Shown in pieces: positions 4,546 to 44,636 of a stretch of DNA of 64,000 nucleotides. This DNA is from a virus (lineage: Duplodnaviria; Heunggongvirae; Uroviricota; Caudoviricetes). The stretch is taken from IMG/VR virus record IMGVR_UViG_2799112923_000001. The stretch is one strand, 5' to 3'. The notes under the pieces are model-generated. The model saw only the letters and a program-made list of their open reading frames with translations. It did not search any database and was not told the origin of the DNA. The position numbers were made by a program, and so were the translations under genes. The stretch's first letter is position 1. Each line of letters opens with the position of its first letter.

Positions 4546-5319
4546 ATGGCAAAGAACAACAACAACACCAAGATTTCCACCATCAACGCTGAAACTCGTA
4601 CCCACTACGAACCGCTCCCCATCACCGACGAGGAACACGCAGATATCCAGGCTCGCCTGATGAAGCATGGTCTTTGTATCAAGCAGGGTAAGAAGCATGC
4701 CCGTGTGTATCGTTTCAAGGGTTGGAAGAACAAGAAGATGCTCACTAGCCCGGACTTCGTCTATGTTATCCAGGCGGATGACTACCGTGCTAACCCGGAT
4801 GGTGTGATTGCCGAATGTGTTGCGAAGTCCGAACAGGTCTTTACGAAGAAGACCAAGAAGGTCAAGAATGCTGAATATGAACGCAACATGTTCAAGGTAG
4901 AAGAAAAGCTGCTCATGGAACACGGCATCAAGATGCAGTGGAAGGTTTCAAAGCATGCGATTTTCAAGCAGGTGGCTCACATTTGTACAGACCGAAAGGT
5001 TCTTGAGGTTCTTGACGAATACGCAAAGAACAACGGCCCATTTGTAACGAACCATCTCCGTGCCACGAAGGACGGAAAGCACCTGGAAATTTTCCGCAAG
5101 CTGATCCGTATCTTTGAAGAATTTGAAAAGGATGTTCCTGATTACGATTGGCACTCCTTCCGCTATATCACAAAGAATGGCAAGGTAGTGTGTGCCTACT
5201 CTACTGTGGACATGACAAAGATTAAGAATGTGGCATTTGCCCGTGGTATCAACGATAAGTTTGATTTCAACCTGAACATCAACAACTATGTGAACGACGT
5301 TCTCGGAATCACGAAGTAA
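4546..5319 (+). CDS. Hypothetical early protein
   Basis: Own promoter (TTGACG 4468), GAGAGGT SD, terminator-like hairpin downstream. Confidence 0.85.
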   Translation: MAKNNNNTKISTINAETRTHYEPLPITDEEHADIQARLMKHGLCIKQGKKHARVYRFKGWKNKKMLTSPDFVYVIQADDYRANPDGVIAECVAKSEQVFTKKTKKVKNAEYERNMFKVEEKLLMEHGIKMQWKVSKHAIFKQVAHICTDRKVLEVLDEYAKNNGPFVTNHLRATKDGKHLEIFRKLIRIFEEFEKDVPDYDWHSFRYITKNGKVVCAYSTVDMTKIKNVAFARGINDKFDFNLNINNYVNDVLGITK

Positions 5320-7366: not shown

Positions 7367-8417
7367 GGCCGACCCAACAGTAGAACCATCTATCCAGCTC
7401 GCAAGTAATCTAAACAATTCTATCTTTCTTGCGGGTCCATGTCCACGAAAGGATTATACAAATGATTGGCGAAACAAGGCATTTGAAATTCTTGAAAAGC
7501 TGGGATTTGATGGAAATGTGATTACACCAACGAATGACCGCTTTCCTGAACTGCGTGAAAAGTTTGGTAAGGAAGCACTGCGTATTCAAACAGAATGGGA
7601 AACGATTGCGATGAAGAAGGCATCAGCCATTGTGTTCTGGGTTGATAGGCACATTGAAGCAGGTTTCCCAGCATTCACTACCAACATTGAATTTGGTGAT
7701 TGGTATAACAAGCCAGGTGTATATTGTGGTTTCCCTGATGATGCGGAAAAGAACGATTATCTTAAACTTCGTTTGGAACAAGAAAAGATTGAGTACTGGA
7801 CTGATCTTGAACAAATGCTTACTGCCGTTGTAAACAAACTCAATGGCAAGTCAAATACTTGGTTCACATCTGATACACATTTCTCCCAGCAGAGAACATT
7901 GGAACTTTCTCGCAGACCATTCATTGATGTAAATCAGATGGACCTGACGATGATTTCTAACTGGAATAAGAAAGTTACAATGAATGATATTGTGTTCCAC
8001 GCAGGGGATTTCGGTGATATTTCTACAATGAAGGATATTCTTTCTTGTTTGAATTTCAAAACTCTTTATTTTGTGTTGGGCAATTATGACCGAAAGATTA
8101 AGGACGAAGTAGAAAAGGTTGTTAGTGAATTGCCAGATCGTGAAATTATCATTTCTTCCAAGGCAGAATTTGATTACAACGATAAACATTATTATGTTGT
8201 TCACGAACCTGACGAAGGAACAGAAACTCCTGAATATCCAAAGAACATTGTTTTGTATGGGCATATTCACGGGCGCAGTTTCGCAAAACAGAATGGTTTT
8301 GATTTGGCAACAGATTACCACAATTACACCCCGATTTCTATGGAACAGGTTGCGTGGTTTGCTAATGCTATTCAGTATTGGGATAACAATGTTTTCTGTA
8401 CCAAGGCTAGTGTGTAA
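7353..8417 (+). CDS. Nucleoside 2-deoxyribosyltransferase-like domain fused to a calcineurin-like metallophosphoesterase
   Basis: N-terminus IFLAGP...WE...IVFW...TTNIEFG; C-terminus SDTH, GDFG, GNYD, GHIH. Confidence 0.75.
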   Translation: MKIIKADPTVEPSIQLASNLNNSIFLAGPCPRKDYTNDWRNKAFEILEKLGFDGNVITPTNDRFPELREKFGKEALRIQTEWETIAMKKASAIVFWVDRHIEAGFPAFTTNIEFGDWYNKPGVYCGFPDDAEKNDYLKLRLEQEKIEYWTDLEQMLTAVVNKLNGKSNTWFTSDTHFSQQRTLELSRRPFIDVNQMDLTMISNWNKKVTMNDIVFHAGDFGDISTMKDILSCLNFKTLYFVLGNYDRKIKDEVEKVVSELPDREIIISSKAEFDYNDKHYYVVHEPDEGTETPEYPKNIVLYGHIHGRSFAKQNGFDLATDYHNYTPISMEQVAWFANAIQYWDNNVFCTKASV

Positions 8418-11172: not shown

Positions 11173-11245
11173 TTCCACAGTTCAAATAAAATAAAAATAT
11201 CCTTCAAGGGGTTGAAATCTTGAAGGATTTTATTATATATACAAT

Positions 11246-11395
11246 ATGATTATGAATAATACACAAATTAGATTGCCTAAACACTATTACTTAATAGCGG
11301 TTAGCGGTGATTATTTTGTGTAAACTGTGAATGTTCATATTGTAGGAAAACAGAAACAAGATTTTCACCGCAACATAAAACTGTTGCGGTTTTTT
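11246..11395 (+). promoter_or_regulatory. Candidate leader peptide and attenuator upstream of the tRNA island
   Basis: 25 aa ORF 11246-11323; terminator ACCGCAACA/TGTTGCGGT plus T-run (11367-11395); GCGGTGA (11304-11310) complementary to TCACCGC (11365-11371). Confidence 0.5.
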
Positions 11396-11431
11396 GTTTA
11401 TATATTTTTACAAAAATTATTCATATTTTGG

Positions 11432-11831
11432 TTGACAAGGGGGTAATGGATTACTATATTATAGTGTGTTAAGAGAATGGTTTGGTTCGTGAAACCAAAT
11501 AGTAGATTGAAAATTGGAATGTGTAAAAAATTTGCGTTTGTTAATACTCGCCTTGGTTGTGGTTGTGAACCACCTGCGGATAGAGATTAACAAATGTAAA
11601 TTACATTTTACAAAAAAAATTCAAAATATGGGTTGACAAACGATAAACAATTAACTATCTTTGTTCACACAAAGAAAATGATTGGTTCGTGAAATCAATT
11701 TGTAGATTGAATGATTTGGAAAATGTAAAAATAAAATTTACAAAAAAATTTACTAAAATGGGTTGACAAACAGAAAATGTTTTACTAAATTTGTGAAACA
11801 CGAATGATTGAAAATCGTTTGAGTAGATTGA
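11432..11831 (+). promoter_or_regulatory. Three tandem sigma70 promoters of the tRNA island, each followed by GTAGATTGA
   Basis: TTGACA at 11432, 11633 and 11763, each with a 17 nt spacer; GTAGATTGA at 11502, 11702 and 11823. Confidence 0.8.
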
Positions 11832-12119
11832 AATTGTGGATTTTATAGTTCAAAACATAGGAACTGACGAAAATCGGACCCGGCTAGAATCGGGTAGATG
11901 GTATGGACCTGAAAAATTAAATTGCAGGATTTCTATGTAATCATTTGAACAAACTACAACAAACTAACAACTGACAGAAATGTTTGTTGTGGGTGTTTGA
12001 ATGGAACAAAAATTTTGAATGAAATGGTTAGATTGCAGCAGTTCTATTAAATCAACAATGTGACCCTTGTTGAGCCAATTTGTTCAAAACAAGAAGGAAC
12101 AACTTGTAAAAACCAAAAT

Positions 12120-12192
12120 GGGTTTGTAACTCAGTTGGTAGAGTAACGCACTTTTAATGCGTGAGTCGGGGGTCCGAGTCCCCCCAAGCCCA
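12120..12192 (+). tRNA. tRNA-Lys(UUU)
   Basis: Cloverleaf; ACGCA-CTTTTAA-TGCGT; T-loop TCCGAGT; no CCA. Confidence 0.9.
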
Positions 12193-12292
12193 CGAACAAA
12201 CTAATGTTCCAAAAGGGAAAAAGCGGGTGGCTCATAGAGCCTAGCCACAAGATGGAAGCCCGCCCACTCAGGTGCGATTTTTGGAATGTTAC

Positions 12293-12366
12293 CGGGATGT
12301 AGTTCAATCTGGTAGAATGGTCGCTTTGGGAGCGAGTGGTTGCAGGTTCAAATCCTGTCATCCCGA
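12293..12366 (+). tRNA. tRNA-Pro(UGG)
   Basis: CGGGATG/CATCCCG acceptor; TTTGGGA loop. Confidence 0.9.
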
Positions 12367-12679
12367 CGAAAGGTTTAAGATTTGGAAACCGTTAACCTTT
12401 AAAAATGGGTAGGATATGATGGTAGTCCTTTTAACACTGACATCCATTAATTGTTATGTTGTTTAAATTAGGAAAGCAGGGATGCGATAACCTGCACGAT
12501 TAACCAACATCGTTAGTTCATTTGTAGTTAGAACAAATTAAACAACTGACTATGGGATATAAACTATCTTGAAGGCCAAAAGATATTATCCCCGAGTAGA
12601 TAGGCGAAACCGGTTCGTAATAAACAAGGCTCTCGCCACGATTTTAATAGTTTGTGATGATACAAACAACAGAACTTAT

Positions 12680-12763
12680 TGGTAGGTACCCGAGTGGTAG
12701 CAGGGGGGAGACTGTTAATCTCTTGTCGCAAGACCGCCGCAGGTTCGAATCCTGCCCTATCAG
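12680..12763 (+). tRNA. tRNA-Asn(GUU) with long variable arm
   Basis: GGAGA-CTGTTAA-TCTCT; variable hairpin GTC-GCAA-GAC; G73. Confidence 0.85.
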
Positions 12764-13105
12764 CTAAAAGAATGAATGGTTAGTAGTACAAATGAACTCA
12801 ATGTAGTAATACTGAGTGCTTAGTACACTCTCCAATAAACCGGAGAGAGATGTTAATGTGACTGTTATGGGTCATTGGTTTAACCTAACTGAGTGTTTAA
12901 CAAAATCACATTTGGTAGTAAAAGGTACAAACTACGCCTGCGCAGATGCCGGGAGTTGCCAACATCCTAAATTGGTAATGTGGTGAATGAATACAAACTA
13001 AACTGGATGATGTTGTATTCTACGAACAATATAATTACCAGTAGTCAATTATGTTGCGAGGCACTTTTTTCCATAGTATGCGTCAAAATGGAACAAATTT
13101 TATAT

Positions 13106-13190
13106 GCTAGTTTCGGATAGTGGTCAATTCCTGGAGACTGTAAATCTCCCGCCCTCTGGGCTTTCGGTGGTTCAAATCCACCAGCTAGCA
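13106..13190 (+). tRNA. tRNA-Tyr(GUA)
   Basis: GGAGA-CTGTAAA-TCTCC; long variable arm. Confidence 0.9.
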
Positions 13191-13226
13191 CTAATACAGA
13201 ATTTTGAAGAATGGTGATGTGAAACA

Positions 13227-13302
13227 GTCCCCATACGCAAGTGGCTAAAGCGGCTCCCTGAACGAGGGAGTGAATTCATGGGTTCAAATCCCATTGGAGA
13301 TT
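13227..13302 (+). tRNA. Atypical tRNA-like gene (nominal anticodon AAC with G33, or degenerate)
   Basis: D arm and T arm (ATGGG-TTCAAAT-CCCAT) intact; CTCCC-TGAACGA-GGGAG; acceptor mismatch. Confidence 0.5.
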
Positions 13303-13566
13303 GAAGTAGCATTGAACAAATCAGGCCTCATACGCAATTTGTTCTAACCAAACTTCATCGGGTGAATAGATGATTGAAAATCCTAGGTAATCATTCAGTC
13401 ACAATTCACCCACCGGTTTTGAAGAAAACTAAATCAACAGGTGGTGTTATACTATTAATTTGTTGTAAACATAGTTGATTCCCACCCGCCCGTCTAAAAA
13501 GATGAATGTGAAGGCCTCCGGCGATGCTCCGATAAACGCATTGTGATTTAGAACAACATTTTTTTC

Positions 13567-13640
13567 GCACCCGTGGCTCAACTGGATAGAGCAACGCACT
13601 TCTAATGCGTAGGTTGTAGGTCCGAGTCCTACCGGGTGTA
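13567..13640 (+). tRNA. tRNA-Arg(UCU)
   Basis: ACGCA-CTTCTAA-TGCGT; T-loop TCCGAGT. Confidence 0.9.
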
Positions 13641-13650
13641 CTAAATTTAC

Positions 13651-13723
13651 TGGGGTATAGCCAAGCTGGTAAGGCAGGGGCCTTTGAAGCCTTTATTCGG
13701 GAGTTCAAATCTCTCTACCCCAA
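13651..13723 (+). tRNA. tRNA-Gln(UUG)
   Basis: TGGGGTA/TACCCCA acceptor; CTTTGAA loop. Confidence 0.9.
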
Positions 13724-13836
13724 CGAAATCAGTTGATGAATGCATCTCAATGTTTAGAAACACAGAACGCATGGTGGAAATCCTGCAAGCAGAAGTTGTG
13801 ACTGCGATAATAAATTAAATAACAACAAATTCTTTC

Positions 13837-13910
13837 CCATCCTTAGTTCAACTGGTTAGAGCGCGGCTCTTATAAGGCTGAAGTTCTAGGTTCAAATCCT
13901 AGAGGGTGGA
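13837..13910 (+). tRNA. tRNA-Ile(UAU)
   Basis: CGGCT-CTTATAA-GGCTG; A73. Confidence 0.85.
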
Positions 13911-13957
13911 CTACCGCTTTTCGCCATAGTACGGGTCAAAATGGCAAAATGTGAAAG

Positions 13958-14461
13958 TAGTTCAAAAGCGATTAGCACCACGCAAATACAAGGTTTGTAT
14001 TGGATGCAAGTTTGACAAGCGTTTCGCTAGTGGTAAGAACGAGTTGCTTCCGAAGATTGGCAGAATCAGCTATGTAAGGCTGTTTAGGAAGTGTAAAATG
14101 CAAGTGTTATGTAGTACACGGACCACGCAAGGTAAATGACCTTATGCTATGCCCACGATAGTCTTTCACTCACAAAGTAGATATATGTGAAAAATACCAA
14201 GTGGTTTACCAATTTGCCTCTATCTACAAAATTGGAAAATCTTTAATGGTTATAGACGAAACTGACCAATGTAAAATAGTTATATGCTCCTTGATAAAGT
14301 GGAATTTATTTTGGATAAAGTATATTATAAAATCTATTTGAATAATACAATAGTTAGACGTTTAGCAGTGAAAAGTTAGACAGAGTAATGATGGCTCGTT
14401 AAGCCCTATCCGAGGGTGTAGTTGAATGGCACACTGGTAAGAACAAAAACTAAATGAACTA
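13958..14461 (+). ncRNA. Candidate ~500 nt structured ncRNA
   Basis: No credible ORF; TAGTTCA/TGAACTA terminal pairing; lies between tRNAs. Confidence 0.35.
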
Positions 14462-14479
14462 AACAAAACATCATACTAT

Positions 14480-14563
14480 GGCCTGGTGATGAAATTGGTA
14501 AACATAGGGGACTTAAAATCCCCCGGTGGTAACACCTTGTGGGTTCAAGTCCCACCTTGGCTA
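14480..14563 (+). tRNA. tRNA-Leu(UAA)
   Basis: GGGGA-CTTAAAA-TCCCC; long variable arm. Confidence 0.9.
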
Positions 14564-14591
14564 CGAACAAAATAATTGGAGATTATTAACT

Positions 14592-14801
14592 ATGATTAAT
14601 ACTGGTTGGGTTCCAGGTTATCTACAAACTACTGGCAGAATGTTACATGAGAGTGGCAAACGCGGTGGTGGTTGTGGTGGACCGAAGAAAGACGATGACG
14701 ATGATGACGAAGATATTAGCATTGTAAAGATTTTACTTTTTTTGTTATTATTCTTTGGTATTGTTGGATTATTCTTTTTCTTGCTTTGTGTTATGTTTTA
14801 A
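14592..14801 (+). CDS. Small membrane protein inside the tRNA island
   Basis: GGAG SD; acidic stretch followed by a C-terminal TM helix. Confidence 0.65.
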   Translation: MINTGWVPGYLQTTGRMLHESGKRGGGCGGPKKDDDDDDEDISIVKILLFLLLFFGIVGLFFFLLCVMF

Positions 14802-14840
14802 TTGTGAAGTTTAGCAAAAACAAAATTCATAAATAAACCA

Positions 14841-14869
14841 TTGACAAACATAAAACAAAAAACTATAAT
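14841..14869 (+). promoter_or_regulatory. Consensus sigma70 promoter
   Basis: TTGACA-17-TATAAT. Confidence 0.85.
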
Positions 14870-14917
14870 TGAATATGTAAACGATACGAATTTAGACGGA
14901 TAGTCAATTTCTTTCGG

Positions 14918-14991
14918 GCCTCATTGATGTAGTGTTAGCATGAAATGTTTCCGACCTTTTCGCCTGAGTTAGATTCTCAGATGAGGCTCCA
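14918..14991 (+). tRNA. Degenerate tRNA-Gly(UCC), CCA encoded
   Basis: GCCTCAT/ATGAGGC-T-CCA; TTTCCGA loop; D-loop lacks GG; T-loop TTAGATT. Confidence 0.7.
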
Positions 14992-15094
14992 AAAAGAAAA
15001 AAGAATTTTGGTTTCCAATTTTTCCTTAAAAATTGGTGGTGGTCGCTTGGAATTTTGTTAGTTTATCCATGACCAAAACAAAACTAACAACCAT

Positions 15095-15179
15095 CCTCCG
15101 ATGGCGGAACTTGGTAGACGCGCTGGACTCAAAATCCAGTTCTCGCAAGAGAGTGTGAGTTCAATTCTCACTTGGAGGA
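15095..15179 (+). tRNA. tRNA-Leu(CAA)
   Basis: CTGGA-CTCAAAA-TCCAG; long variable arm. Confidence 0.9.
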
Positions 15180-15399
15180 CTAATACCAAAGTAAAATAGA
15201 GAACTGTGATTTAAAAGTATCAGGTAGTTTGTAGTACTGACCTTAACAAAAACTAGGAAATTTGAAGAGTCATTGGCTTAACCAATGTGGAGCGATACCC
15301 CTGATAAGGGTTCCCGCAAGCTGTGTAGTGCTTTGAACTACACACAAATTTAGAAGGAGAAAATGGTTTGTTAATTTACCACAAATAAATTAACACCAT

Positions 15400-15472
15400 G
15401 CCTGGTTAGCACAGCTGGTAGTGCAGCGGCTTTGTAATCCGCAGGTCGGGGGTTCGGGTCCCTCACCAGGCG
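15400..15472 (+). tRNA. tRNA-Thr(UGU)
   Basis: GCCTGGT/ACCAGGC acceptor; TTTGTAA loop. Confidence 0.85.
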
Positions 15473-15484
15473 TAATAAATAAAC

Positions 15485-15926
15485 AGATTGAGAAATCAAT
15501 CAAGCGAAATCTTTAGCCTAATACAAATCTAATCTGGTTTGAAGGCACTATGGATGCACTGAAAAGGTGTTTGAAGTAGGTATGAGATAATCGCAAAAAC
15601 ATAGGGTAAACTGCGTAACTATTAGTTAGAGGTTTATATGTTTGTGGAATTTTGAGATACCCAGGGTTCCACAGGCTACGAAACAGATGTGGCGTCTGAG
15701 TTCAAATATAAGTCGCTAAAGCCGAAATAGTGAGAGTTTTATCGGATGACAGATATGCTATTTTTGGCACAGATTGCCGATATGTGTGTAAATCCACACC
15801 AGTGACTTGTAGCATTGAAAGGGGTAGCTGCCGAGTAAATGTGTTGCTGTGACCTAATAATGTTTGGTTATTTCATTAAAGGTAAACCCCAGTCCTTTAA
15901 GTTTCGTTTTATTGATTTTTCAATCT
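15485..15926 (+). ncRNA. Candidate ~440 nt structured ncRNA
   Basis: 16 bp terminal stem 15485-15500/15911-15926; no ORF. Confidence 0.55.
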
Positions 15927-16193
15927 TGAACAAGATAATCCAGGAAACGGAGGTTTGTTATCTCATAGCGACGCACTGCTATCTGTAAGATAATGAGCGG
16001 GCACGAAATGGAAGCGCTGACACTCTAAGCTCTGTTAGACATGGACTGATAATTAATATATCTTGTTAGGGTACCTAAATGTCCGAGAGTACCTGCCATT
16101 TAAACAAAAACATACTTGGTTGTCCTACGAACCTTCACGATTTTTGAAATCGTAAAGGAATGAGAGTTTGTATGTTCTCTCATAAGATTTTAT

Positions 16194-16267
16194 CGCGGGG
16201 TGTAAGCAGTTGGTAGCTGGCAAGGCCCATAACCTTGAGGTCGCGGGTTCAAGTCCCGCCCCCGCTA
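16194..16267 (+). tRNA. tRNA-Met(CAU), initiator-like
   Basis: CGCGGGG start with a 1:72 mismatch; CAAGG-CCCATAA-CCTTG. Confidence 0.85.
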
Positions 16268-16737
16268 GAATTTGTCCACAAAGAAAAATGCGGTCAGAAC
16301 GCATTGGACCTTTTCCTGGTGAGAGCCTCGTAACTAGGACTGTAGCAAACGAGGCAACGAATTTAACGCGGCACAATTATTCTTTTTGCGAATTTGTTTA
16401 AAACAAACACAGATTCCACCATAAGAAGAAATAATTTCGTACAAACGCAAATAATCCTAATGACGTCTAATGGAACGATTGTGAGTGCGGCGACCAATTA
16501 ACTAATGGCTGATAGACGATAAATAAAATGAAGATATGAATATGGTTGCGGGTTGAGTCTAGATATTCCTTCTAGAATTATTCATTTCTCGGAAGTGACG
16601 AATCGGTATTCTTCCGGGCCATTATTTTGAAATTTAAACGTCTCCTAGGCGGTTATTGGTTCTTTACAATTTTCTCCACTAATCAAAAGAAAATCTATTT
16701 TTTGTTTGTTGTTACCTCCTTGGGTTGTGGTTGACCC

Positions 16738-16772
16738 AATGCTCACTAGCGAATGTTAGTGAGCATTTTTTG
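16738..16772 (+). terminator. Intrinsic terminator of the tRNA island
   Basis: ATGCTCACTAGC/GTTAGTGAGCAT plus T-run. Confidence 0.8.
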
Positions 16773-16958
16773 TAAGTACTGGTGCCATACTGACCAGTTT
16801 TTATTTAATTGGTATAGTTTACTATCCAACACAGAAATCGCCTTATAACGCAAGTACTGACGAATACTGTGTAAACAAACTTTTACAAAGAAATAGTTGC
16901 CAACCTGTATATTAGTTACTATATTATGGTTGTTAAAAATTAAAAGAGAGGTAAAAAT

Positions 16959-17150
16959 ATGAAGAAAGTTTATGTTCTCACATACAACACTATGGATAAG
17001 CCTGAACGTCGCATGATTTGGGGTGTTTATGGCTCAAAGGCAACAGATAAGGAAAACCACGATGAAGCAGAAAAGGCTCGTCAGGGCATTATCAAGCAGT
17101 ATGGTTCATTCCTAGCAGATACAGAAATTGATGAACAAGAAGTAAGGTAA
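16959..17150 (+). CDS. Hypothetical early protein
   Basis: Promoter TTGCCA 16897; GAGAGGT SD. Confidence 0.75.
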   Translation: MKKVYVLTYNTMDKPERRMIWGVYGSKATDKENHDEAEKARQGIIKQYGSFLADTEIDEQEVR

Positions 17151-17717
17151 ATGGATTATAAACAATCTATCGGTGCCGTTGTTAGGCATTTTTACGAACA
17201 CCATACTGATGTATGGTGTTTTTGTCCTGGTTTCCCTAATAATTACAAAGAAATGAAGTTATCCGAATTTGGTGAAACTGATGAAGAAATTGCGAACAAG
17301 ATAATAGACCAGTTACATGAAACTAAACTAGAATTTGAAATGTTCAGTTCCGACAACAGTCATCCAGGTGGTTCATTTTATGGGCCGTCATTGTATATTG
17401 AAAATGGTTATACTCCATTCCCAGATGGTGGAAAACCTAAATGGATTACTGGTACATTGAAAATGATACAACAAGTTCCAATGTTAAGGTATTATGGTGA
17501 TGATAAACGAATTTTCCAGTTAGGAAGTAAACCTGTAAATTTTTATTTCACACAACAGTTTAAAGGGCAAAACGATTTTGATAATTATTTGAAGTATTTG
17601 AAGAAAACAGAAGAAATAATCAAACACAACAAAGAATATCAAGATAGATTTGAAATTGATAAGAAATATGTAAAAGCCCAAGACCTGGAACAAGCAATTC
17701 AAACTGATTTTGATTAA
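17151..17717 (+). CDS. xxDF-tail family protein
   Basis: Ends IQTDFD. Confidence 0.8.
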   Translation: MDYKQSIGAVVRHFYEHHTDVWCFCPGFPNNYKEMKLSEFGETDEEIANKIIDQLHETKLEFEMFSSDNSHPGGSFYGPSLYIENGYTPFPDGGKPKWITGTLKMIQQVPMLRYYGDDKRIFQLGSKPVNFYFTQQFKGQNDFDNYLKYLKKTEEIIKHNKEYQDRFEIDKKYVKAQDLEQAIQTDFD

Positions 17718-17862
17718 CACAGTTCGCCACCAAACAAAATGATTATTGTGGCTATTGAAAAATTATAAATAATAAACTATATTATAACTACTAAAATGGT
17801 TTACATTTAGCCCCCTGAGCAATTTGTGTATGGGATTGGTTAAATGGTTTGCCTTAAAATCT

Positions 17863-17985
17863 ACCACCCGTGGTGTAATGGTAGCACGGTAGGATATAAT
17901 AGAGATAAATTATTATTGATTTTTATAATAGAGTTATATAATAATAATTGGAATCAGGTGGGTGGTTCAAATCCCCCGGGGTGGT
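17863..17985 (+). pseudogene. tRNA-like element with the anticodon arm replaced by an AT-rich insert
   Basis: ACCACCC/GGGTGGT acceptor, GTG-TAATGGTAG-CAC D arm, GGTTCAAATCC T arm, ~60 nt AT-rich middle. Confidence 0.6.
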
Positions 17986-17998
17986 CTAAATTAGAATT

Positions 17999-18166
17999 TG
18001 GGTATAGTTCCCTGCACACAGTTCTAGAATGCGTGTTCAAGAAGCCCGCAGTAAGACCTCTGTGAAAGGTTTGGTGAGTTATCCTTGTCGCAAGGCACGA
18101 AGATTTGAAAGGGAATAAATGGATTAGATAGCAACTCAACTATCGCCGGGCGCAGTCCAATACCCA
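17999..18166 (+). ncRNA. Candidate ~170 nt structured ncRNA
   Basis: TGGGTAT/ATACCCA, CTGC/GCAG and GCCCG/CGGGC nested pairings. Confidence 0.4.
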
Positions 18167-18193
18167 TCACATTTAATACAAAGGAAAAACAAG

Positions 18194-18349
18194 ATGAAAA
18201 AGAAGAAAGTAGTTATTGAGAAAGAAACACAGGAACAGAAAGAAGCTCGTTGGAAGAAGAATTTGAAGATGGCACGAAGTTTTGCTAAACAAGCAGGTGT
18301 AAAGAAAGAAAAGAAAGTAGAAAAGCAATCGGAAAAATACGATTACTAA
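18194..18349 (+). CDS. Small basic protein (51 aa, not in ORF track)
   Basis: AAGGA SD; Lys-rich. Confidence 0.65.
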   Translation: MKKKKVVIEKETQEQKEARWKKNLKMARSFAKQAGVKKEKKVEKQSEKYDY

Positions 18350-18357
18350 CTACAGTT

Positions 18358-18440
18358 GGAGGATTAGCCTAATTGGTAAGGCAGCAGATTACTAATCTGC
18401 CGCGGGAAACCGCTTGGGGGTTCAAGTCCCTCATCCTCCG
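18358..18440 (+). tRNA. tRNA-Ser(ACU)
   Basis: GGAGGAT/ATCCTCC-G73; GCAGA-TTACTAA-TCTGC; long variable arm. Confidence 0.85.
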
Positions 18441-18457
18441 TTAATTGAGAACAAACT

Positions 18458-42806: not shown

Positions 42807-44636
42807 ATGCAGTCAAATAAAAAAGATTTACTTGAATTGATGAAATGTAAACCATATCTAACAACAGACGATATGAAATCATTGAAGTTAAAGCCTGAAA
42901 CTCTAAAAGACTTTTGTGACGAATTTGGTTTCAAAATCAGTATGTTAAAGTATGGCAACGAAGAATATAGATTCTTTAACAAAGATGGTGTAATGGTTAA
43001 AGACTACACCAAACTAGAAGTTACAGACAATGGTTATTGGAAGTTCTCCACACAAACTAGATGTCAGGAAGATTTGGATAAACTATACAAACGAATTTGT
43101 GCTGATGCTAGAAAGCGTGGATTGGTAAAGAATGATATTGGTGTATGCCACGAAAAGATTGAAGATTATAGATTGACCCAATACACCGAAGAAGCTCGTT
43201 TCCCTGATTTCACATTCAAACAGAAATACAAAAGACCAAAAGAAAGAAATGCTAAGTCATGGAATTATTGGGATAACTGGCGAGATATGCCAGAGTTTAT
43301 CTTTGACTTCAAGCCATATTCTTACACAAAAATACAAATGTATTTCAAGAAATCCGACTATACTCTTGAACAACTAATGGAAATTTTTGAACAAAGTTTT
43401 GGTATTAGTCCTGAAGATTGCTGGTACCCAATTCAAAAATGGCAAGAACATACCAAGCATCGTATTCGTTGGTTGGGTGGTGAACATCCTCGTTATCCAA
43501 TTTTCGTTGTATCCCGTGGAAGAAGTGGCGAATTTAAAAACCACATTTCTCACCAGCTCACAAAGATGCAGGTGAACCATTACATTGTTGTAGAAGATTG
43601 GGATTACGATAACTATGTAAATAGTAAACTCAATGAAAGTCCATATTGTACCATTCTACAAATGGATATGAGTTATAAAGATAAGTACGATGTTATTAAC
43701 CCTAATTTGGGTGGTGCGAAGATAGATTTTAGAAATGGTAAGCAAGTTACCGGTCCTGGTGCAGCACGAAATTGGGCAGCCGATTATGCCAAAAACACAT
43801 TGAAACAAAATTGGTGTTGGATTTTGGATGACAATACAGACCAGTTCACCCGATATTGGAGAGGACGCCGAGTTATTTCCCACTCACCCGAAATCTTCAG
43901 TTCTTGTGAACGATTTGTTGACCGCTACACCAACATTGGATTGGCTGGCTTGAACTATGAATGTTTCGCTATTGGTGGCGAACATATCCCACCTATCATT
44001 ATTAACACTCGTATCTATTCTTATGGTTTGTGGAATTTGAATTGCCCATACATTATGCAGCGTGGAAGATACAATGAAGATACCATTCAGTCTCTTGACA
44101 TTCTATCCCACGGTTGGTGTACTGTTCAATTCTCTTGTATGTTGGCAGATAAGATGCACACACAGGCCGTAAAGGGTGGTAATACAGAAGTATTCTACTC
44201 AAAAGATTTGGGTGGTACAATTCCTAAATCCCAGCTCCTAGTTGAAACATACCCACAGTATGCTACAATGATTTACAAGTTTGAACGAATCCACCACCAG
44301 GTAGATTATAGTTCATTCAAGCAGGAACTACAATATAAGCCTGAATATGAGTATCTAAAAGACGAGGAACGAAACATTCCTAATGAACATGGTGCTTATT
44401 GTATTCGTATTCCATACGATAACTTTGATTGGTTAAGAAACGATGAATACGATAATCGTGAATATCTTGAAAAACATTTCCCAAAGGGTTGTGCCGAAGA
44501 TATTACCAATAGTAGATTGTATTTGGATTATCCTGATATGGAAGATTACGATAAATGCCCATATAACTCGCCAAAACACGAAGAAATGGCGAAAAAATTC
44601 AAAGAACACGATTCATTGGAAGGCTACTATCTATAA
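42807..44636 (+). CDS. GT-A fold glycosyltransferase (GREB1/TET-associated type), probable DNA modification
   Basis: YPIFVVSRGR, GPGAARN, WILDDN, GRYNEDT, KGGNT. Confidence 0.7.
   Translation: MQSNKKDLLELMKCKPYLTTDDMKSLKLKPETLKDFCDEFGFKISMLKYGNEEYRFFNKDGVMVKDYTKLEVTDNGYWKFSTQTRCQEDLDKLYKRICADARKRGLVKNDIGVCHEKIEDYRLTQYTEEARFPDFTFKQKYKRPKERNAKSWNYWDNWRDMPEFIFDFKPYSYTKIQMYFKKSDYTLEQLMEIFEQSFGISPEDCWYPIQKWQEHTKHRIRWLGGEHPRYPIFVVSRGRSGEFKNHISHQLTKMQVNHYIVVEDWDYDNYVNSKLNESPYCTILQMDMSYKDKYDVINPNLGGAKIDFRNGKQVTGPGAARNWAADYAKNTLKQNWCWILDDNTDQFTRYWRGRRVISHSPEIFSSCERFVDRYTNIGLAGLNYECFAIGGEHIPPIIINTRIYSYGLWNLNCPYIMQRGRYNEDTIQSLDILSHGWCTVQFSCMLADKMHTQAVKGGNTEVFYSKDLGGTIPKSQLLVETYPQYATMIYKFERIHHQVDYSSFKQELQYKPEYEYLKDEERNIPNEHGAYCIRIPYDNFDWLRNDEYDNREYLEKHFPKGCAEDITNSRLYLDYPDMEDYDKCPYNSPKHEEMAKKFKEHDSLEGYYL

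Follow-up and report, generated by a model that had tools for sequence, protein, structure and literature searches.

The analyzed stretch of DNA (64,000 nt, referred to as the window) belongs to a rumen phage contig of 229 kb with a GC content of 34%. Terminase, neck, and tail genes of the T4-like kind are present in the phage, and its DNA was detected in gut sequencing runs from cattle and sheep. On the plus strand, an open reading frame (ORF) of 25 codons (11246–11323; ATG at 11246, TAA ending at 11323) is followed by an intrinsic terminator (11367–11395), as described in the first-pass annotation. The codons up to about the 16th form the stall-sensitive zone. Upstream of this leader lies a gene for a 227-aa protein, and downstream fourteen tRNA genes are located at 12120–18441. 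For tRNA cluster 2 (12120–16266, plus strand), 13 tRNA genes are listed, i.e. Lys-UUU, Pro-UGG, Asn-GUU, Tyr-GUA, an odd Val-AAC, Arg-UCU, Gln-UUG, Ile-UAU, Leu-UAA, Gly-UCC, Leu-CAA, Thr-UGU, and Met-CAU. No strong plus-strand terminator was found before 16766; tRNA-Ser(ACU) (18357–18441, plus strand) lies beyond the terminator at this position and is therefore probably outside the attenuated transcript. Another cluster (cluster 1) with its own leader (leader 1) is located 2.4–4.3 kb ahead of the window start; it has 19 genes according to ARAGORN (in L159), which missed Phe-like and Ile(GAU)-like genes.

Related loci fall into four clades: the window type (L140–L142, L157, L171), the L127 type (L127–L138), the G001 type (G001, G002, L166), and L164. 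As there are four clades only and these are linked by descent, conservation counts are given as support and not as a formal test. In all four clades the leader is located directly 5′ of the same tRNA cluster. In two more distant phages (L169 and L170; marker protein about 50–58% identical) no tRNA cluster was found near the marker gene. An alignment row with erroneous coordinates (L167chk) was disregarded. Among GenBank phages, no DNA similar to the window was found, and a search of viral contigs with the 227-aa protein gave no match. Bacterial and archaeal genomes contained one true copy of the leader, located on a phage-like contig that had been assigned to a Rickettsiales metagenome-assembled genome (L157; CAMVHP010000032.1). 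Its leader and tRNA cluster are nearly identical to those of the window, and the contig is probably a mis-binned phage fragment. The other three bacterial or archaeal matches were without leader-like context, and no host counterpart was found there. A scan with a 14-mer terminator pattern yielded only chance matches. Contigs from RNA libraries of four studies cover the region; they are possibly DNA, with unreadable strand, ends, and level, and were not counted as evidence. Two of them span the terminator (X19, 11331–12011; X20, 11262–11585), one terminates at 11407 (X17), and a joint of 11288 to 11377 among them probably represents a diverged relative.

The tRNA regions showed several further peculiarities. 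The tRNA called Val(AAC) (13226–13303) has G33, a weak acceptor stem, and an Rfam score of only 34 bits, which is low; it is present in the two nearest clades and was not found in G001, G002, L164, and L166. A34 anticodons, which are rare in bacteria, occur in Ser(ACU) (window 18357–18441), Gly(ACC), and Ala(AGC) (L159 6262–6335 and 6775–6848). tRNA-Leu(UAA) is interrupted in L164 (16490–16826) and in L166, where tRNA-Lys is interrupted as well (L166 loci at 14767–15053, 16700–17030, and 17532–17723); L166 also has two group I intron-like matches under the Rfam gathering score. In L166, cluster 1 is also reduced to five tRNAs (7709–8272). Leader 1 of this contig has lost one Asp codon as well as the Trp codon; it contains GGC, with Gly(GCC) standing in for Gly(ACC), but it retains several codons whose tRNAs are gone from the cluster. 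At window positions 17864–17986, a tRNA-like shell in which the anticodon arm is replaced by a long AT-rich insert is conserved in G001, G002, and L166. Elsewhere in the window, an Rfam cow-rumen-2 RNA scores over the gathering threshold at about 91–195 (L159 9364–9468; L166 8485–8589), and a TET-associated glycosyltransferase domain (PF20691) at 42807–44636 points to DNA base modification.

Frame, start, and stop of the leader ORF are conserved in 13 more copies from the four clades, in which it comprises 24–25 codons and stays open throughout. Indels within it are 3 or 6 nt long and keep the frame, and synonymous changes were seen; in L138, for example, codons 10 and 16 have exchanged TTG and TTA. 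The first-pass annotation had proposed that the 3′ end of the ORF can pair with the 5′ arm of the terminator; this pairing is present and longer than described. It connects an antiterminator 5′ arm (segment 2, 11300–11319, plus strand; 7-bp core at 11304–11310) with a 3′ arm (segment 3, 11356–11374, plus strand; core at 11365–11371) overlapping the terminator 5′ arm. The free energy of this duplex is −22.5 kcal/mol compared to a mean of −8.6 kcal/mol for shuffled ORF ends, and none of 2000 shuffles was equal; across the clades, values lie between −19 and −22.5 kcal/mol, with p ≤ 0.002 for each clade. The terminator (3:4; plus strand) has a 9-bp stem at 11367–11390 with −13.0 kcal/mol and a T-run. 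A third helix, the protector hairpin 1:2 (11260–11322, plus strand), is part of the minimum-energy fold and would hold the antiterminator 5′ arm when the ribosome is absent; an equivalent hairpin forms on folding in four clades.

Folding of both conformers thus yielded mutually exclusive 1:2, 2:3, and 3:4 helices in the classical layout. The ribosome-free RNA is predicted to form the terminator together with the long 5′ hairpin (−37 kcal/mol). When the ribosomal P site is at codons 1–15, the nascent RNA folds into the antiterminator (−23 to −27 kcal/mol), which is lost once the P site reaches codon 16–17, assuming that about 13 nt are covered 3′ of the P-site codon. The switch point is at codon 14–16 in each of the four clades, so that a stall by about codon 15–16 is predicted to give read-through, and otherwise termination. 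At equilibrium, folding in L127, G001, G002, and L166 favors the terminator, and therefore switching must be co-transcriptional. All seven positions of the antiterminator core pair in four clades, and three of the seven pairs show double changes. Every clade also retains the first nine pairs of the terminator stem, which in L164 carry double changes. This covariation in both competing helices supports the proposed geometry of ribosome-mediated attenuation. Over 11200–11400, no Rfam match was obtained at E ≤ 1, and thus no T-box or metabolite riboswitch was recognized. With classical attenuators the element shares the open short ORF, the terminator, the exclusive antiterminator, the placement of control codons, and the match between codons and controlled genes; it differs in not being located between the sole promoter of an operon and its genes, since sigma70-type promoters lie downstream of the terminator. 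Judged from these sequence features, the element is very likely a real ribosome-dependent attenuator.

The codons of the leader match the tRNAs of cluster 2 at the level of isoacceptors. The tRNAs named in the first-pass annotation all exist, AAT and TAT being read by G:U wobble instead of an exact match. CCT, which had been considered to match Pro only by amino acid, could be read by tRNA-Pro(UGG) at 12293, as a UGG anticodon reads CCT by family-box wobble. The annotation had left out the misfits ATT (codons 2 and 8) and CAC (codon 13; retained in three clades), which are decoded by tRNAs of the other cluster; also, the stall-sensitive zone barely reaches ATA (codon 17) and does not include AGC (codon 20). 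Codons 2–17 hit eight of the nine cluster-specific codon boxes (p = 0.0014 against windows of phage genes; p = 0.012 against base shuffles; p = 0.012–0.07 against AT-matched controls), and 12 of the 15 sensor codons belong to the cluster set (p = 0.03 against AT-matched non-coding frames). The caveat that AT-rich DNA favors these codons consequently matters for the window taken alone; it is removed by the relatives.

Within the same genome, this leader uses AAA, CAA, AGA, and TTR, while leader 1 uses AAG, CAG, CGN, and CTN, matching its own cluster. For the families split between the clusters (Lys, Gln, Arg, Leu, Ser), the ratio of cluster-1 to cluster-2 codons is 9:2 in leader 1 and 0:6 in this leader (Fisher p = 0.002), and the same comparison in G001/G002 gave 8:1 and 1:7 (p = 0.003). 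In L164, the most distant of the clades, which was recovered only after the codon classes had been fixed, the peptide is reordered (KLQNRPTNKQYYLNI) and contains no His, yet 15 of 15 sensor codons belong to the set (binomial 1e-6; none of 1393 AT-matched frames was as good), and hence codons and not the peptide are conserved. No tRNA-Pro was found at the L164 locus, though the L164 leader carries CCC. Codons also track tRNA relocations in the relatives: In L164, where tRNA-Ser(ACU) has changed over to cluster 1, leader 1 contains AGT/AGC and the cluster-2 leader does not; in G001/G002, the Asn tRNA is found solely in cluster 2, and leader 1 is without an Asn codon. The covariation of the helices, the contrast to leader 1, and the same codon set in a different peptide in L164 support the suggested multi-codon sensor, and we consider it likely that the attenuator senses the cluster-2 codon set.

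Directly upstream of the leader, the box TATATATA (11234–11241, plus strand), followed by CAAT and then the ATG, is a candidate late-type promoter matching the T4 late consensus TATAAATA at seven of eight positions, i.e. with one change. In T4 late promoters, TATAAATA is located at −13 to −6 (PMC1524935), which would place +1 within one base of the leader ATG. Both leaders of the genome, which are unrelated in sequence, are preceded by a (T/C)ATA(T/C)ATA box in four clades. A longer box motif has 5–6 matches per 105–110 kb in G001 and G002, exclusively on one strand, and the reversed control motif had none in these contigs (105–110 kb each). The arrangement of box, CAAT, and ATG is also found before the head-tail adaptor and tail-sheath-stabilizer genes (49290 and 61471); at its fifth position, the box carries T or C ahead of the leaders and A ahead of these late genes, a difference that leaves its class tentative. 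We infer that transcription from a late-type promoter yields a leaderless RNA with the ATG at about +1, and on balance we lean towards the attenuator being driven by this promoter.

Alternatively, the main input to the same attenuator might be polymerases reading through from the early operon upstream, or a weak host promoter; we regard this as unlikely. A hairpin with a T-rich tail (11199–11232, plus strand), which probably terminates transcription of the upstream 227-aa gene, is confined to the window clade and its nearest sister clade (L127–L138 keep the stem with altered sequence) and would speak against read-through there; its absence before the leader in G001, L166, and L164 speaks for this alternative, and it is also absent in L146. 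TACAAT at 11240 resembles a −10 hexamer with a second ATG 7 nt further on, but neither a conserved −35 element nor a Shine-Dalgarno sequence precedes the leader ATG, and G001/G002 have one ATG only, immediately 3′ of the box. Supply from the late-type promoter thus remains our preferred reading of the entry to the attenuator.

Two other explanations dispense with codon-specific control of the tRNA genes. The leader could be a general translation sensor or a sensor of nascent-peptide arrest (at the RLPKH stretch), the codon match resulting incidentally from AT richness and from constraints on the hairpins. Any early stall would indeed antiterminate, the window by itself reaches only the p = 0.03 against AT-matched frames, and NTQIRLPKHY is almost invariant in three clades, including the His codon without a cluster-2 tRNA. 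A conserved arrest motif as in SecM, TnaC, or ErmCL is nevertheless not found, as the motif is replaced and the His gone in L164 while codon set and RNA switch are kept; moreover, leader 1 uses the complementary codon set in the same AT-rich genome, and Ser codons follow the location of tRNA-Ser(ACU). We therefore consider this explanation improbable. It is even less probable that the locus is a constitutive small RNA or small-peptide gene (e.g. a type I toxin) with its own terminator and unrelated to the tRNAs, despite the strong folding of the unit alone (z = −6.25) and the separate promoters of the tRNAs. A conserved, covarying antiterminator would be purposeless in such a gene; L164 does not conserve the peptide, whose first 13 residues are polar and basic, the Rfam search was negative, and the location before cluster 2 is constant in all clades. 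Thus, a codon-sensing attenuator is the reading followed below.

As the first-pass annotation had cautioned, three sigma70-type promoters lie downstream of the terminator on the plus strand (11432–11460, 11633–11661, and 11763–11791). The first of these bypasses the switch and has a counterpart in every clade, each clade having one to three such promoters 3′ of the terminator; an additional one at 14841 serves the distal tRNAs. In cluster 1, the promoters are all upstream of leader 1. Because of the conserved promoters past the terminator, the switch cannot be the master control of cluster 2. Accordingly, the idea that it raises phage tRNA transcription holds for transcripts starting upstream, which would most likely originate at the late-type promoter, but not for those from the downstream promoters. 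Genes directly behind sigma70-type promoters have a median cluster-2 codon share of 0.28 (n = 6, one promoter being probably false) compared to 0.58 (p = 0.001), a result that is tied to GC3, and five of the six contain at most one ATA; a stricter promoter pattern captured just two promoter-proximal genes (p = 0.05). This avoidance in six genes suggests that the host decodes cluster-2 codons poorly, and consequently their tRNAs would be needed early and unconditionally, with the switch adding more later.

Some further elements were noticed in the context of these promoters. A late-like box, CATAAATA, lies directly 5′ of a perfect sigma70 promoter preceding tRNA-Gly (14828–14869) and forms a second entry for the distal tRNAs. 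Downstream of each of the three promoters behind the terminator, there is a short hairpin with a GTAGATTGAA motif (11472–11512, 11672–11712, and 11800–11835); this pair is retained in four clades and might signal antitermination or processing. A long imperfect hairpin located between promoters 1 and 2 (11528–11600, −26.9 kcal/mol) is conserved in close relatives; it had no Rfam match and may resemble a twister ribozyme. A 257-aa gene at 4546–5319 with a GC3 of 0.62 and a cluster-2 codon share of 0.01 is conserved in many rumen phages, had no Pfam or PHROG family, and is probably a very early, host-adapted gene.

From the ORF, the three exclusive helices, their conservation, and the codon match, we infer that the leader is translated, that its promoter is used, and that it has a regulatory function. 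We consider it rather probable that a ribosome-dependent attenuator gauges the decoding of a whole codon set and thereby controls read-through into the cognate tRNA genes. Polymerase would start at the late-type promoter box, giving a leaderless RNA that begins at or beside the ATG. A ribosome reaching the stop codon would cover segment 2, the terminator would form, and an RNA of about 150 nt would end at about 11395. Upon shortage of charged tRNA for any of AAA, CAA, AGA, TTA/TTG, ACA, CCN, TAY, or AAY, the ribosome would wait before about codon 16, the 2:3 helix would form, and transcription would enter cluster 2. Newly made tRNAs would relieve the stall, closing a negative feedback loop. 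The host-type promoters past the terminator would provide an ungated early supply, and the switch would set only the late top-up. The first-pass annotation had named scarce or cleaved host tRNAs as the trigger; ordinary undersupply of AT-rich codons fits at least as well as cleavage. It is also quite possible, without our calling it probable, that two complementary codon-level sensors, one per tRNA cluster, cover almost the whole genetic code, with tRNAs for AT-rich codons made unconditionally early and topped up late on stalls, including those after attack by host tRNA-cleaving defences.

trpL and hisL are classical leader-peptide attenuators, and thrL and ilvL of enterobacteria are multivalent ones. 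The phage leader resembles these four in the short ORF, the control codons 5′ of segment 2, the exclusive 1:2, 2:3, and 3:4 helices, and the U-run terminator. It differs in that its target is tRNA genes, in that it is located in a phage and is bypassed by downstream promoters, and in its eight or nine codon boxes, mostly occurring once each and specific at the isoacceptor level, instead of runs for one to three amino acids. Attenuators of aminoacyl-tRNA synthetase genes (pheST; trpS and leuS in Streptomyces) likewise feed back from charged-tRNA supply onto the translation apparatus; they sense one amino acid and their product is a synthetase, whereas the phage target is tRNA. The anatomy of attenuators including trpS and leuS has been described for Streptomyces (PMC1262725), where the upstream leader codons of ilvB turned out to be non-regulatory on mutation, so that leader anatomy is not proof of regulation. 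Leaderless sensor ORFs are known from the polycysteine attenuators of mycobacteria (10.1101/834739), which are likewise short and sensitive to stalling; unlike the proposed phage leader, they control translation initiation of the downstream gene, respond to one amino acid, and reside in a host genome. Phage tRNA regions counter tRNA-cleaving defences (PMC10264068; T5 tRNA-Tyr, PMC11555353). Such regions are also clusters behind strong promoters that in principle can replace depleted host tRNAs; rescue was tied to promoter strength in a study whose text does not mention attenuation (PMC11555353). In the literature searched, which covered few subscription papers, attenuation is known for amino-acid genes, and no description of an attenuator of tRNA genes was found.

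Why phages carry tRNA genes, i.e. for codon compensation or for replacing destroyed host tRNA, has been debated for 50 years (PMC10264068). The leader described here would be the phage's own record of the codons it monitors, and thereby of the tRNAs that become limiting, and a reporter of 150 nt would bring the question within reach of a test. The genome may hold both answers, with one cluster for AT-rich codons under ungated early supply and another whose promoters are all upstream of its attenuator. If true, tRNA genes and a late phage promoter would join the known settings of attenuation.
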